A DNA stretch of 64,000 nt from an uncultured Acidobacteriota bacterium (GTDB lineage: Bacteria > Acidobacteriota > Terriglobia > Acidiferrales > UBA7541), in the NCBI GenBank assembly GCA_963788785.1, contig CAWBIB010000005.1:111893-175892 (forward strand), in the 5' to 3' direction. The position numbers and the translations under genes were made by a program. Positions 7,739 through 14,230 of this stretch are shown piece after piece. Under the pieces are notes generated by a model that worked only from the letters and a program-made list of their open reading frames with translations, was not told the origin of the DNA and searched no databases. Numbering within the stretch: the stretch's first letter is position 1; each line of letters starts with the position of its first letter.

Positions 7739-8182
7739 TTACTGCCCAGCTTCGAGTTTCGCGGTGATCAAGCCAACTTTGTCGATGCCCGCGCCGCGCA
7801 TAATGTCGATAGCGCGCGCAACGTCCTTGAACATTACATCGTTATCGCCTTTGACGAAAGCAACTTTCTCGGCGCGCTCTTTGAAAATCTGTTCCATGCG
7901 CGTGCCGAGCGCTTCCCAGCTGACGTCTTCGTTATTAATCTTCAGCTTGGGATTGTCTGACTTGGGATCGGCGATCACCTGGACCACCACCGTCTTGTTA
8001 TCGATTTCCTGCTGTTGCTGCTGGTTGGGATTCGGCTGGGGCACCAGGGCATCCATGCCCTTGGGGGTCAGCGGCGTGATGACCATGAAGATGATCAACA
8101 GCACCAGCAAAATATCGATCAGCGGGACGATGTTCATCTCCGCCATTGCACCGCCGGTATTTTCTCCTACGGACATTCCCAT
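7739..8182 (-). CDS. exbD: ExbD/TolR family biopolymer transporter subunit (copy 1)
   Basis: NIVPLIDILLVLLIIFMV TM with conserved Asp; KGDNDV.F..V...IDI...AGI..VGL. Confidence 0.92.
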   Translation of the reverse strand: MGMSVGENTGGAMAEMNIVPLIDILLVLLIIFMVITPLTPKGMDALVPQPNPNQQQQQEIDNKTVVVQVIADPKSDNPKLKINNEDVSWEALGTRMEQIFKERAEKVAFVKGDNDVMFKDVARAIDIMRGAGIDKVGLITAKLEAGQ

Positions 8183-8220: not shown

Positions 8221-8661
8221 CTACTGCCCGGCTTCCAGCTTGGCGGTAATCAATCCCACCTTTTCGATACCGGCACCACGCATGATGTCCACGGCGCGCG
8301 CAACGTCCATGAACATTACATCGTTATCGCCTTTGACGAAAGCAACTTTCTCGGCGCGTTCTTTGAAAATCTGATCCATTCGCGAACCCAAAGCGTCCCA
8401 GGTTACGTTCTCGTTGTTGATCTTCAGCGCGGCTTGATCCGATTGGGAATCACCCAACACCTGCACCACGATGGTGTTTACCACCGGCTCTACGCGTCGC
8501 GGGTCGTTGTTCGGTTGAGGCACTAACGCCTCCAACCCTTTCGGCGTCAACGGGGTGATGACCATGAAGATAATCAAGAGCACCAGCAAGATATCGATGA
8601 GCGGAACCACGTTCATTTCCGCCATCGCGCCAGTTTGCTTATCTCCAACGGACATTCCCAT
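8221..8661 (-). CDS. exbD: ExbD/TolR family subunit (copy 2, close paralog of copy 1)
   Basis: NVVPLIDILLVLLIIFMV; ATG 8661 with GAGGAG RBS. Confidence 0.92.
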   Translation of the reverse strand: MGMSVGDKQTGAMAEMNVVPLIDILLVLLIIFMVITPLTPKGLEALVPQPNNDPRRVEPVVNTIVVQVLGDSQSDQAALKINNENVTWDALGSRMDQIFKERAEKVAFVKGDNDVMFMDVARAVDIMRGAGIEKVGLITAKLEAGQ

Positions 8662-8784
8662 GGCATTTCTCCTCGTCGAAGCACGCCGATGTTTCGGGAA
8701 TTGCGCCGCGCCGGGTGGGTGCCGGCGCGGCCTACAGCTTACAGGAACGAATGACAGCAACTACGAAACGTGAAACGCGCCAGC

Positions 8785-9237
8785 TCAATCCGCAGGTGGC
8801 GGAGGAGGAGGCGCTTCATTGGCCGAGTGGGTCTTGTCGGTAAGCAACCCGAGTTGATCCACACCGGCCGACCGGATTTCGTCAACCGCGCCGACCACGT
8901 CGCCGTATTTTGCGCGAGCATCGCTCTTCACAAATACAGTCTTGTCGAGGCGGTTGGAAATGCGGTCTTTGATTTGGTTGGTCAGGTCAGCCTTTTCCGT
9001 GGCCGTGGTGCCCAGGAAAATCTTCCCATCACGCGTGATGGCCACGATGATGGCATCGTCTTTATCCGCATTCTGCATATCGTGCGTGTTGTTGACGCTC
9101 GCCAGGTCCACCTGCTTGCCCTTTTGCAACATGGGCGTGACGACCATGAAGATGATCAACAAGACCAGCATGATATCCGCCATCGGAATTACGTTTGGCG
9201 TGGACATCTGACTGCCGACTTTTGGTTTATAGCCCAT
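8785..9237 (-). CDS. exbD: ExbD/TolR family subunit (copy 3, divergent)
   Basis: NVIPMADIMLVLLIIFMVVTP; KSDARAKYGDVV.AVD.IRSAGV..LGL. Confidence 0.92.
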   Translation of the reverse strand: MGYKPKVGSQMSTPNVIPMADIMLVLLIIFMVVTPMLQKGKQVDLASVNNTHDMQNADKDDAIIVAITRDGKIFLGTTATEKADLTNQIKDRISNRLDKTVFVKSDARAKYGDVVGAVDEIRSAGVDQLGLLTDKTHSANEAPPPPPPAD

Positions 9238-9246
9238 GAGGGGTCC

Positions 9247-9975
9247 TTACTTCTTGGTCGCGCCGCGACGGAGAATGAAGTAGTTGATGAGCTCCATCGA
9301 AGAGTTGTCCATCTCGACGTCGAAGGCTTCGACCTTGTTCGTGAAATAGTTATAGGCCCAAACGGCAGGCACGGCCACGAGCAAGCCGAGCGCGGTGGTT
9401 ACCAAGGCTTCCGCGATACCGCCGGCGACCGCGGAAAGACCGGTTGCGTGGCTGGTTTCGATACCTTTAAATGCGTTCAAGATTCCGACCACCGTGCCGA
9501 ACAGTCCGACGAACGGCGCGGTGGAACCAATCGTGGCCAGTGCCGAAAGTCCGCGCTTCATTTCCGCGTGAACGATGGCGACCGAGCGCTCGAGACCGCG
9601 CTTGGCGGCTTCGATCACGTCAGCGTCTGAAACTTGCTGCGAGGCGGACTGAAATTCCGAAAGGCCGGTCGCCACAACTTTGGCGATATGGCTCTTCTTG
9701 TTGCGCTCGGCGATGGCAATCGCTTCATCCAGCTTGCCTTCTTTGAGCGCGCCGGCGACTTGCTGCACAAACACGCGAGACTGTTTGCGCGCCGCGCTGT
9801 ACATCAATGCGCGGTCAATCATTACGCCGAAGGAATAAATCGAGAGAATGAACAGAATCACGACTACGGTGCGAGGCAGGGCGCTCATCGAACCCCACAT
9901 CGTGCGTAGGTCCCAGTTGGAACCGTTGGCCTGCTGGAACAGCATGGCCGCGTATACGTACAGTGTTGCTACCAT
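9247..9975 (-). CDS. exbB: MotA/TolQ/ExbB proton channel subunit
   Basis: LATIGSTAPFVGLFGTVVGI..AF, GIAEALVTTALGL.VAVPA. Confidence 0.93.
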   Translation of the reverse strand: MVATLYVYAAMLFQQANGSNWDLRTMWGSMSALPRTVVVILFILSIYSFGVMIDRALMYSAARKQSRVFVQQVAGALKEGKLDEAIAIAERNKKSHIAKVVATGLSEFQSASQQVSDADVIEAAKRGLERSVAIVHAEMKRGLSALATIGSTAPFVGLFGTVVGILNAFKGIETSHATGLSAVAGGIAEALVTTALGLLVAVPAVWAYNYFTNKVEAFDVEMDNSSMELINYFILRRGATKK

Positions 9976-10061: not shown

Positions 10062-10793
10062 TTACTGACTCAGAGAGAAAACCACGTCAATGGTGGTGTC
10101 GACTTCCACCGGCACACCATTCAAAAGGGTTGGCTGATAGCGCCACTGTTTCACGGCGTCCAGCGCCGACTGGACCAGCAGCGGATGCCCGGATTCCAGG
10201 CTGAGCGACTGAATCGAGCCGTCTTTGCCGATGATGGCGTGCAGGCGAACCGTGCCGGAAATGCGGGTCTGCCGCGCCAGCGGAGGATAATTAGGCTTCA
10301 CCTGGTTGATGAGCTTGGCGGCTTGCACCTGGCCGCCCTGGTGAATGCGCGATTGCGTAACCTTCGGCGGCGGTGGCGCGGCGCCGATGCCGCCCATCAC
10401 TCCACCCAAAACACCACCGAGGCTGCCGCCGGCCACACCGCCCGGCACGCCCACTCCACCGACCGCACCCATGTCCGGGTCAGCGTCTTCCTTAATAATT
10501 TTGACGTCCTTCGGGATAACTTTTGGCGCCACCAGTTTGCCGGCATCCATCAAGTGGACCTGCGGCTTGACGTGCACAATAGCCGCGACGGGCGGCGGCG
10601 GGGGAGGCGGGGGAGGCGGCGGCGCGACCAGCAGCGTAGCCATCATCGTCTTCGGCAGCGCCTCCGTGTAAATCAGAGGGATAAGGATCAAGATCGACAG
10701 GAAGCCCACCTGAAAAATCATGGACAGCACCACCGTCCAGGGCTTGTTGGTCTTGACCGCCTTCGAAGTCGAAACCACCATATCTTCAAACAT
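10062..10793 (-). CDS. tonB: TonB family energy transducer
   Basis: N-terminal TM, poly-Pro linker, TonB-C domain (YPPLARQTRISGTVRLHAIIGKDG...AVKQWRYQP). Confidence 0.9.
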   Translation of the reverse strand: MFEDMVVSTSKAVKTNKPWTVVLSMIFQVGFLSILILIPLIYTEALPKTMMATLLVAPPPPPPPPPPPVAAIVHVKPQVHLMDAGKLVAPKVIPKDVKIIKEDADPDMGAVGGVGVPGGVAGGSLGGVLGGVMGGIGAAPPPPKVTQSRIHQGGQVQAAKLINQVKPNYPPLARQTRISGTVRLHAIIGKDGSIQSLSLESGHPLLVQSALDAVKQWRYQPTLLNGVPVEVDTTIDVVFSLSQ

Positions 10794-10799
10794 GAGTTG

Positions 10800-12074
10800 T
10801 TACCTCCCGCCTGCAGGAGCCAGACGCCCTGAGGCGCCCTCGCTTCCGCGGGCTTTGCTGCCGGCTGCGGGTCCGGCGCTTGCTGCTTGCCCCTGGCCGC
10901 GCCAATTGACCCAGGCGACCACGAGCGGAGCAGCGATACCAAAACTGGAGTACGTTCCTATCACAATTCCCACCACTAGAGCAAAGGAGAAAGCACGAAG
11001 TACCTGCCCGCCCATGAGAAATAGTACAAGCACGGTGAGAAATGTGAGTCCGCTGGTGAGAATGGTTCGCGAGAGCGTCTGATTAATGGACTTATTGACG
11101 ACGTCAGCGAACGATTCCCGACGCAGCAAACGGTTGTTTTCGCGGATGCGGTCGAAAATCACGATGGTATCGTTCATCGAGTAGCCGACCAGCGTTAATA
11201 AAGCCGCGATTACCGTTAAAGAAATTTCAAAGTGAAAGAGCGAGAACAGCCCCAGAGTAATCAGCACGTCGTGAAAAACCGCGATAACCGCCGCCGCGCC
11301 GTAAACCCACTCGAAACGAAAGGCAATATATAACAGCATGCCTCCCAAAGCATAGAGGGTGACCCAAATCGCCTGGGAGCGCAGCTCCGCGCCAACTTTG
11401 GCGCCGACAATTTCTACGTTGCGAATCGTGAAAGGTCCTAGCGCATAGCCTTGGGTCAATGCGGATACGACTGCGGGCGTCGTGCCGTCCACCTGCGAAA
11501 GGTCGCTCATATTGGTGAGCACGCCGTTGGCGCTCTTATCGCGATACTGCAAAATCCTTTTCGCCAATTGCGTGTAACGGTCTCCGGCATTGCTGGAGAG
11601 CGCCAGAGGATCGCGTTCAGTCAGAAAAGTGGTCAGCGAAGTCGGCGTCGCCGCGTTGAAATCCGGCCGGGTCGAGGTGCTCTGGCCATAAATGGCGTTG
11701 AGCGCATTCAGAACCTGGGTTTTGCTGGCGTCCAGCGCCTGATCCGTTTCGCCTTTGCGTTCCAGTCCGATGACCACTTCGTTGGCTTTCGCGCCAGGCA
11801 GGGCGTTGTCGCTAATGGCCTGAATTTCGCTGCCGGTCAAACCTTGCGCGGTCAGCGCGTTGCGCAGCTGGTCCACGTTCGGAGGTTGCGCGAAGCGCAC
11901 ATCCACGTTGGTTCCACCCCGAAAATCAATGCCGTAAGGAAGACCGCCGTGCGCTGGGCCGCCCTTCATAAACACTGAGGCCCAGCCGATCACCAGGAGC
12001 AGTGCGCTGAGGGCGAAGAAGTACTTGGCTTTGCCCATCCAGTCGATATTTGGCTGTTTGAATAGCTCAATCAT
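10800..12074 (-). CDS. secF: Protein translocase subunit SecF with enlarged periplasmic domain
   Basis: GIDFRGG, VGAELR, FHDVLIT, GYSMNDTIVIFDRIRE, SINQTLSRTILTS. Confidence 0.95.
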   Translation of the reverse strand: MIELFKQPNIDWMGKAKYFFALSALLLVIGWASVFMKGGPAHGGLPYGIDFRGGTNVDVRFAQPPNVDQLRNALTAQGLTGSEIQAISDNALPGAKANEVVIGLERKGETDQALDASKTQVLNALNAIYGQSTSTRPDFNAATPTSLTTFLTERDPLALSSNAGDRYTQLAKRILQYRDKSANGVLTNMSDLSQVDGTTPAVVSALTQGYALGPFTIRNVEIVGAKVGAELRSQAIWVTLYALGGMLLYIAFRFEWVYGAAAVIAVFHDVLITLGLFSLFHFEISLTVIAALLTLVGYSMNDTIVIFDRIRENNRLLRRESFADVVNKSINQTLSRTILTSGLTFLTVLVLFLMGGQVLRAFSFALVVGIVIGTYSSFGIAAPLVVAWVNWRGQGQAASAGPAAGSKARGSEGASGRLAPAGGR

Positions 12075-12250: not shown

Positions 12251-13882
12251 CTAAATGCTTAATTCTGCCTGGCGGTCCATCTTGGCCAGGTGGTATTGGA
12301 AAATTGTCTTGGAAACGTAGATAGCCGTGAACACGTTGGCGATCAAACCGATCGTCAAGGTGATGGCAAACCCGCGGATCGGTCCAGTTCCAAAAAGGAA
12401 CAGAAAGAACGCCGATACCACGGTCGTGACGTGGGTGTCGATAATCGTTAGAAAGGCCTTGTCGAAGCCCGCCTGAACGGCCGAAGCGGCCGACTTGCCA
12501 TTACGCAATTCTTCGCGGATGCGCTCGAAAACCAGCACGTTGGAGTCGACGCCCATACCAATCGTCAGAATCACGCCGGCGATACCCGGCAGAGTGAGCA
12601 CCGCGCCAAACATGGCCAACGCGGCCAGCAAAATAAGCAGGTTCAGGATCAACGCCACCACGGCGTTGGCGCCCGAGAGCCGGTAGTAGAACAGCATGAA
12701 GATCATCACTACGAGTAAGCTCAACACCGAAGCTTGCACGCCATGGCGGATGGAATCGGCGCCCAGCGAAGGACCCACAGTGCGCTCTTCCAGATACTTG
12801 ATCGACGCCGGCAGAGCTCCGGACCGCAAAACCAAAGCCAAGTCGTGCGCGGAATCTTGACTGAAATTTCCAGTGATCTGGCCGTTGTCGTCGATGCGGC
12901 CCTTGATTACCGGAGCCGAATAGACGGTTTTTTCCAGCACGATGGCCATCTGCTGACCGATGTGCGACTCCGTGAAAGGACCGAAGGTGCGCGCCGCGTC
13001 GCCTGAAAGCGTGAACCCAACCTCGTACATCCCCGGATTGGCGGTGCTGCGGTTTTCAGTGGCGCTGCGTAAATCGCGTCCCGTAATGATCGACGTGCGG
13101 CTGAGCAGGTACCAGCTCTCGGTGGGAGTCGCTCCAGAGCCGGTGGTTGTCGGCGCGCGGCCTGGTACCAGTTCTGTTCCGGCTGGCAAAACTCCTCCAT
13201 GCCGCTGCAGCGCTTCGGCCTGCGAGGTGTATACTGCGGGATCCATGACCAATTTCAATTGCAATTGCCCGGTCTGCTGAATCACGTCTTTCGCGCGCGT
13301 GGGATCGCCTTCCCCAGGAAGCTGCACGAGAATTTCATTGTCGTTACGGCCATGCAGCTGAATCGTCGGCTCGGTCAAACCCAACGCGTTAATACGACGC
13401 TCGATGGTTTCGAGAGACTGCGTCATCGTCGTGGACTGGATTTGCGCGATCGCGCTGGGCCGCATGGTTAGCGTGAAACCGTTCTGCTCGCCGGCGGTCG
13501 AACTCAGATCCCACAACCCGGCGTACTGCGTGCTGATCAAATCGCGGAACGCACCGAGCTGGTTGGCATCTACGTTGCGAATGATGATGTGGGTGTCGTC
13601 GCTGCGGCGCACTTCGTCGTAGGTAATATTTTTGGCCCGCAGCGCGGTCGTCAAGCGGTCCACCGCTTGGTCCGTCTCCTGCGCGATGGCTTCTTGCACC
13701 TGCACTTGCAGAATCAAGTGCGTGCCGCCCTGTAAGTCCAGGCCCAGCTTGATCTGGTGCGCGAAATTATCTTTGATTGTCGCTACGGACGTGGGAAACG
13801 TCGGGTAGCCCACCAGAAAATAAACGCAGAACAAAATTACCGCCAGGATGAACAGCGCTTTCCACTTCAGGTTAGGAGTCAT
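12251..13882 (-). CDS. secD: Protein translocase subunit SecD
   Basis: LGLDLQGG, IERRINALG, VGPSLG, GMGVDSNVLVFERIREE, IRGFAITL. Confidence 0.96.
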   Translation of the reverse strand: MTPNLKWKALFILAVILFCVYFLVGYPTFPTSVATIKDNFAHQIKLGLDLQGGTHLILQVQVQEAIAQETDQAVDRLTTALRAKNITYDEVRRSDDTHIIIRNVDANQLGAFRDLISTQYAGLWDLSSTAGEQNGFTLTMRPSAIAQIQSTTMTQSLETIERRINALGLTEPTIQLHGRNDNEILVQLPGEGDPTRAKDVIQQTGQLQLKLVMDPAVYTSQAEALQRHGGVLPAGTELVPGRAPTTTGSGATPTESWYLLSRTSIITGRDLRSATENRSTANPGMYEVGFTLSGDAARTFGPFTESHIGQQMAIVLEKTVYSAPVIKGRIDDNGQITGNFSQDSAHDLALVLRSGALPASIKYLEERTVGPSLGADSIRHGVQASVLSLLVVMIFMLFYYRLSGANAVVALILNLLILLAALAMFGAVLTLPGIAGVILTIGMGVDSNVLVFERIREELRNGKSAASAVQAGFDKAFLTIIDTHVTTVVSAFFLFLFGTGPIRGFAITLTIGLIANVFTAIYVSKTIFQYHLAKMDRQAELSI

Positions 13883-13912: not shown

Positions 13913-14230
13913 TTATTTTGCATCTTCCGATGCCTCCACCTGGGCGATAGCTGCTCGCGATACGCGAATTTTTACTTGCGGCTCTGAGGAAATCTTCAAA
14001 ATCACCGAATCCCCATCGATGCCGCTGATGGAGCCGTAAATTCCACCGGTGGTCAGAATCTTGTCGCCGGTTTTGAGCGCCGCCAGCATTTCCTGGGTCT
14101 TTTTGCGCTGCTTCTGCTGCGGCATGATCACCATCAAATACATGATGCCGAACATCAAGCCCAGCGGAATCAGGAACCCGCCAAAACCCCCTGCTGCGCC
14201 GCCAAGTTGTAAGAATGTTGCCAATGTCAT
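13913..14230 (-). CDS. yajC: Preprotein translocase subunit YajC
   Basis: PQQKQRKK..MLAALK.GDKILTTGGIYG. Confidence 0.94.
   Translation of the reverse strand: MTLATFLQLGGAAGGFGGFLIPLGLMFGIMYLMVIMPQQKQRKKTQEMLAALKTGDKILTTGGIYGSISGIDGDSVILKISSEPQVKIRVSRAAIAQVEASEDAK

Follow-up and report, generated by a model that had tools for sequence, protein, structure and literature searches.

A predicted helix-hairpin-helix domain, homologous to the HHH_3 domain of ComEA, inserted in the periplasmic P4 domain of SecF in Acidobacteriota

Introduction

The SecF protein encoded by an uncultured member of the Acidobacteriota, an environmentally dominant soil phylum, carries within its periplasmic P4 domain an additional domain which, by profile comparison, is homologous to the helix-hairpin-helix (HhH) domain HHH_3 of ComEA and Tex proteins. 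ComEA is a periplasmic DNA receptor, and its HHH_3 domain binds DNA; the domain found in SecF probably does not, and may serve as a protein-contact module. Within the general secretion pathway SecDF is, to our knowledge, the sole pulling motor known to be driven by protons, and we know of no solved SecDF structure that departs from the arrangement in which the SecD half bears one mobile head (P1) and the SecF half has P4 as a bare base. SecDF with an HhH insert in SecF is a new, phylum-wide version of this well-known machine. A first-pass annotation of the DNA had supposed the fusion to be undescribed, and a full-text literature search agreed: it turned up no paper in which SecF or SecDF is described with an HhH or ComEA-like domain.

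With insert-less relatives as controls, the additional folded domain at the pseudo-symmetric position would provide a comparative system for studying how the P1 head swings and how substrate is captured and released. What limits or tunes these processes is listed as open in a 2018 review of the working model (PMC5974789). The insert would also illustrate cleanly how a DNA-binding (HhH)2 module can lose the features by which it contacts DNA and take on a new use as a protein module outside the cytoplasm, and it warns annotators that HHH_3 matches inside SecF are not to be equated with competence or with DNA binding.

Identity of SecF and position of the insert

The open reading frame at 10800-12074 of the window (the whole stretch of 64,000 nucleotides that was analysed) is SecF by every test that we ran. 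It passes the curated family cut-offs, with 302 bits for TIGR00966 (cut-off 160), and matches the solved SecDF structures in the PDB with E-values of 1e-64 to 1e-66. Its parts follow the order GG motif (Sec_GG, PF07549, aa 44-64, 29.6 bits), periplasmic domain and six-transmembrane RND-type half, and the SecD_SecF_C domain shows a mean pairwise identity of 93% among relatives. The operon order is yajC-secD-secF (Table 1). The first-pass annotation had described a 424-aa SecF with a periplasmic insert at residues 137-207, and this description was accurate: E. coli SecF has 323 aa (PDB 5mg3_F), and positions 11454-11666 of the window, minus strand, translate exactly to these residues (PDFNAATPTSLTTFLTERDPLALSSNAGDRYTQLAKRILQYRDKSANGVLTNMSDLSQVDGTTPAVVSALT). 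A mis-called start or a fused reading frame was ruled out, since both the N-terminus and the length are common to homologues.

When SecF was aligned with the SecDF of T. thermophilus, residues 7-104 matched 439-529 and residues 216-399 matched 551-734, in colinear order; because only these flanking segments align, 21 Thermus residues stand against 111 in this SecF. The insert-less SecF of a genome of the same class (G230; 320 aa) reads ...ERALTANY-HDS-TFQVLQVDVVGP at the junction, a stretch also given as ...ERALTANYHDSTFQVLQVDVVGP, and the insert therefore comprises aa 131-213, approximately 83 residues. The insertion site lies between α2 and β4 of the periplasmic P4 domain. With the canonical proteins of T. 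thermophilus (3AQP), D. radiodurans (5XAP) and E. coli (5MG3) this SecF has in common the transmembrane domain, the GG motif, the P4 core and the yajC-secD-secF operon. The difference is that P4 in the solved structures is a bare base of ~90 residues, whereas here a further domain, predicted to be folded, occupies the site equivalent to that of the P1 head.

At its other end SecF has a Gly/Ala/Ser/Arg-rich C-terminal tail of 29 residues (GQAASAGPAAGSKARGSEGASGRLAPAGGR; aa 396-424, window 10803-10889, minus strand), which has a pLDDT of ~33, no predicted structure and a mean identity of 0.72 among close relatives.

Table 1. Features of SecF and of its operon, in window coordinates
Feature	Residues	Window position	Strand	Basis and remarks
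secF		10800..12074	minus	424 aa; coordinates include the stop codon; ORF list
N-terminal P4 ferredoxin-like core, β1 α1 β2 β3 α2	44-130	11685..11945	minus	AF2, Foldseek
Inserted degenerate (HhH)2 / HHH_3-like domain (predicted), proposed 'P4 head'	131-213	11436..11684	minus	hhalign, AF2, absence in G230
Expanded loop TERDPLALSSNAGD replacing the first G-h-G hairpin	152-165	11580..11621	minus	hhalign; D-P motif kept
Second hairpin, V-D-G-T-T-P	195-200	11475..11492	minus	Alignments A3 and A4; family consensus V-x-G-V-T-P
P4 β4, back to the core, then TM2	214-222	11409..11435	minus	AF2 strand 215-222; SecF-SecD alignment
SecD_SecF_C transmembrane domain (PF02355)	215-390	10905..11432	minus	Pfam, 213 bits
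secD		12251..13882	minus	543 aa; Pfam SecD_1st, SecDF_P1_head 254-359, SecD_SecF_C 360-530
yajC		13913..14230	minus	105 aa; Pfam YajC, 98.8 bits

Homology of the insert to HHH_3 domains

A resemblance of the insert to the ComEA/HHH_3 pattern had first been seen by eye, and profile methods bear it out. The Pfam model HHH_3 (PF12836) matches with 15.6 bits when the whole SecF is searched and with 19.6 bits when the insert is searched alone (E-values of 0.017-0.001), which is under the 27-bit cut-off; it matches 22 of 23 homologous inserts, with a best E-value of 2e-5, and in the distant SecF relative P0181, which has a tandem insert, one copy exceeds the cut-off with 39.7 bits. A profile of the insert (A1), compared with 1.84 billion representative proteins, retrieved SecF and SecDF proteins together with proteins in which bona fide ComEA-type HHH_3 repeats stand three to six in tandem. 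In these multi-repeat proteins, some of which also have SLBB domains, the repeats score 10-26 bits each via positions 41-88 of A1.

Since circularity was to be avoided, a comparison set (A5) was gathered independently of the insert profile: 11 ComEA-like and 4 Tex-like HHH_3 domains, collected with Pfam from genomes of the same class (Terriglobia). Comparison of the diverse SecF inserts (A4) with this set by hhalign gave a probability of 97.3% and an E-value of 2.2e-11 in an alignment of 64 columns that takes in both HhH motifs, with one insertion of ~15 residues located at the first P-G-I-G hairpin of ComEA. As judged from these profiles, the insert is homologous to the HHH_3 domain of ComEA and Tex. 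The homology to ComEA extends over ~65 residues with the same helix order, both domains are extracytoplasmic, and they share a D/I-x-N-x-A start, a YR(D/E)xxG core and an 'L..V.G' second hairpin. A chance motif or a low-complexity linker is excluded by the conservation of the insert, by the hhalign result and by the pLDDT values given below.

Sequence-profile searches of the PDB with A1 found nothing, and those with A4 returned sub-threshold HhH proteins only (EEPD1, E-value 0.03; ComEA 8dfk/8dss, E-values 0.5-1.3), a result consistent with the assignment and not significant in itself. PsbU and GspK of the type II secretion system (T2SS) are likewise extracytoplasmic HhH-type folds that have been reused, and the Pfam models PsbU and T2SSK cross-match true HHH_3 repeats; they differ from the SecF insert in host protein and in context. 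In Pfam the insert had no direct significant match to the PsbU or GspK families, and 6 of the 23 inserts gave weak matches to T2SSK_1st.

Two tandem copies of the HhH insert are present in the relatives P0181, P0198, P0246 and P0270, where SecF reaches a length of 474-502 aa.

Predicted structure of the insert

We modelled the periplasmic domain (aa 44-228) with AF2 from an alignment of 30 sequences, and obtained a pLDDT of 82.7 and a pTM of 0.74. The model has a β-α-β-β-α-β core, with strands at 54-61, 83-87, 99-105 and 215-222 and helices at 67-76 and 111-129. The insert is its best-predicted part, with a pLDDT of 88-95, and the predicted helices of the insert (144-154, a short one at 160-162, 164-181, 189-194 and 200-209) fit the five-helix (HhH)2 pattern, in line with the fold that had been proposed for it from the sequence. 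The AF2 model of the full-length SecF (pLDDT 59.6, pTM 0.36) is too poor for any statement on geometry; the helices of the insert are visible there too.

A Foldseek search of the PDB with the two-domain model returned the P4 domain of SecDF (2rrn; prob 0.99, E-value 1.3e-2) and PII-like ferredoxin folds, which, together with the topology of the AF2 model, confirms the ferredoxin-like P4 domain of SecF. No HhH structures were returned by this search, in which the ferredoxin core alone was recognised. The HhH fold of the insert is thus a predicted one, and it rests on profile homology and on the predicted helix pattern.

Distribution and conservation

The long SecF noticed in the first-pass annotation proved to be common across the phylum. 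The insert profile had a match in 189 of 301 Acidobacteriota genomes, representing 125 of 188 genera, and the matching reading frames, one per genome, were always of the size of SecF (~390-470 aa) or of a SecDF fusion (~930-990 aa). In the remaining 112 genomes the insert is absent or undetected. In some of these, for instance G048, SecF is nevertheless long and has an HhH-like insert that has diverged, and four genera of Acidobacteriaceae have a canonical SecF of 320-343 aa, cleanly without the insert; in some other families of the class the insert profile had no match. The closest relatives of the SecF studied here come from metagenome-assembled genomes (MAGs) of Candidatus Acidoferrum/Acidiferrum (Acidoferrales, Terriglobia, Acidobacteriota), and the reach of the related-loci search with A1 was limited to close Acidoferrales relatives. 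The best explanation of the distribution is an ancient insertion that is phylum-wide in the Acidobacteriota.

The mean pairwise identity of the insert is 0.67 among close relatives and 0.31 among diverse ones, as against 0.71 and 0.35 for the P4 core. By this measure of sequence identity the insert matches the P4 core in conservation and is under purifying selection. Invariant or nearly invariant positions are D138-x-N140, L147, L151, D155-P156, Y177-R178-D179, G184, L192 and G197. In the expanded loop, P156 is invariant among close relatives and D155, L157, L159, N162, A163, G164 and D165 are nearly so; the D-P motif is retained in most of the diverse relatives, and the length of the loop at the first hairpin varies between 13 and 25 residues.

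These observations bear on the idea that the insert is a near-neutral decoration, an old insertion that stabilises or lengthens P4, has no specific ligand, and is kept because its removal destabilises the fold. The insert is dispensable in some lineages, which fits an accessory or even near-neutral role: an otherwise normal SecF lacks it cleanly in several Acidobacteriaceae genera, it is absent or undetected in over a hundred of the genomes surveyed, its first-hairpin loop varies in length, and it is duplicated in tandem in some lineages. However, a conservation equal to that of the P4 core across the whole phylum, with D-x-N, D-P, Y-R-D and G-V-T-P nearly invariant, exceeds the needs of a spacer, and we regard a near-neutral decoration as rather doubtful.

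DNA-binding features and competence genes

The first-pass annotation had suggested that the insert adds to SecDF a module for nucleic-acid or polyanion binding, or for scaffolding. If the insert bound DNA or another polyanion in the periplasm, it would link the PMF-driven SecDF motor to the handling of nucleic acids. Such a role would agree with the genuine homology to the DNA-binding HHH_3 domain of ComEA found by hhalign, and with the YR(D/E)xxxG core and the D-x-N-x-A start, both kept in the insert. Against it stands the degeneration of both G-h-G hairpins. In place of the first, which in ComEA reads PGIG, the insert has a conserved acidic loop of 14 residues here (TERDPLALSSNAGD) and of 13-25 residues in the family. 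At the second it has D-G-T-T-P, with G-V-T-P as the consensus and G-V/T-T where ComEA has G-I-G, so that the first Gly of G-h-G alone is kept; the degenerate GTT hairpin had been read correctly from the sequence, as the alignment and the AF2 model confirm. Furthermore, the second hairpin of ComEA (RGIG or RGIS) is followed by K/R, whereas the insert is without K/R after its hairpins.

The charge of the insert argues in the same direction. Its net charge is 0 among close relatives and -2.4 among diverse ones, with a pI of 6.7 and 5.5 respectively, compared with +6.3 and a pI of 10.3 for the 11 ComEA HHH_3 domains of the same class. The insert has no basic surface, and it is embedded in SecF, whereas ComEA is a stand-alone anchored protein. 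In addition, the genome encodes its own canonical, strongly basic HHH_3 protein of the ComEA type (86.5 bits; 184-aa reading frame, G000:C9:646947-647126, L085). A connection with competence was not borne out either: all of the 38 compared genomes of the class have comEC and 24 have the insert, so the insert does not track comEC. No covariation of the insert with comEC or comEA was seen; ComEA-type proteins occur without the insert and vice versa.

Since the hairpins are degenerate, no K/R follows them and the charge is zero or negative, we read the insert as a domain that probably does not bind DNA. Of the functions first suggested, nucleic-acid or polyanion binding therefore finds no favour in hairpins, charge, the separate ComEA or the pattern of comEC and comEA, and scaffolding is the part that the evidence supports. 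We consider a DNA- or polyanion-binding insert to be very improbable, and it seems hardly credible that a ComEA-derived domain still grips DNA or a periplasmic polyanion in such a way that the pulling by SecDF would extend from protein to nucleic acid or polymer.

The genome also contains comEC (G000:C4:289151-290065) and further HHH_3 proteins, among them a shorter one (42.8 bits; G000:C1:410794-410967, L086).

A possible P4 head at the site of the P1 head

In the alignment of SecF with its paralogue SecD, SecF 8-92 corresponds to SecD 3-99, and SecF 214-381 to SecD 358-524. The P1 head of SecD, at aa 254-359 by Pfam, lies directly ahead of the SecD position that matches SecF 214. Since the insert ends at 213 and SecF 214 aligns after the P1 head, the insert is located at the junction which in SecD holds the P1 head. 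The two domains thus share a topological insertion point, immediately before the last strand of the base and TM2. Like the P1 head, the insert would form a periplasmic, membrane-distal projection. They differ in fold: the P1 head is an α/β domain with an amphiphilic cavity, whereas the insert is predicted to be a five-helix (HhH)2 domain.

The two halves of SecDF are pseudo-symmetric, with P1 much larger than P4, and the P1 base and P4 form a single eight-stranded sheet or barrel (PMC5974789). [quoted passage not shown] According to the same review, the swing of the P1 head is partly driven by factors still to be found (PMC5974789).

By analogy with SecD, we put forward, as a reading that in our judgement falls a little short of probable, that the insert is a 'P4 head', a protein-contact domain without DNA binding that serves the P1 head or the substrate. 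This P4 head would stand out from P4 at the end far from the membrane, next to the P1 base. It would offer a passive abutment, or second wall, to the upright (I-form) P1 head and to the preprotein segment held there, and in this way could adjust how the substrate is captured and released while protons drive the pulling cycle. We infer both where it lies with respect to the P1 head and that it touches the head or the substrate. A 'two-headed' SecDF motor, in which the P4 and P1 heads would act together during the power stroke, is possible, and we suggest it with slightly greater reserve.

The insert could also be a docking platform: an HhH domain that touches neither the P1 head nor the substrate and recruits a periplasmic partner, for example a SurA/PpiD/Skp-type chaperone, YidC or some other part of the holotranslocon. 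PsbU and GspK use HhH-like folds in protein-protein or structural roles that involve no DNA binding, and the weak T2SSK_1st matches among the inserts and the conserved expanded loop are in keeping with a docking function. So is a metagenomic YidC (P0144) with a whole SecF-type P4+HhH unit, which suggests a role of the module at the periplasmic side of the translocon. However, this YidC comes from one contig on which genes close by seem to be frameshifted, and no conserved neighbour gene is specific to insert-bearing genomes, tonB following secF either way. We therefore consider docking unlikely, and the P4 head is the reading that we prefer.

Neighbouring genes and related observations

Downstream of secF, the start of tonB (10062-10793, minus strand) lies 6 nt past the secF stop. 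It is followed, also on the minus strand, by exbB (9247-9975) and by three tandem exbD paralogues (8785-9237, 8221-8760 and 7739-8182). In 75 of 76 related loci secF has a TonB homologue after it on the same strand, with a median gap of 9 nt between matches, and one follows it too in the insert-less Acidobacteriaceae genome G230. This last observation ruled out that the insert is functionally tied to the tonB operon downstream: because G230 shows the same adjacency, the linkage of secF and tonB is conserved but unrelated to the insert.

In the YidC mentioned above (P0144, L119:4001-5743, 580 aa), the SecF-type P4 ferredoxin domain and the HhH insert are found at aa ~188-345, inside the periplasmic domain of YidC. 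The gene stands in a normal rnpA-yidC-jag-mnmE context on a contig of 306 kb. It is a single case, neighbouring genes show signs of long-read frameshifts, and an assembly artefact is possible; if real, the fusion argues that the module acts at the periplasmic face of the translocon.

Several MAGs labelled Methylomirabilota, Dormiibacterota, Verrucomicrobiia, Limnocylindrales or Betaproteobacteria have secF inserts that are 62-68% identical to the Acidoferrales one (loci L024, L036, L038, L039, L040, L046 and L057). This identity is on a par with that of the matches labelled Acidoferrum, and it seems likely that these records are taxonomically mislabelled.
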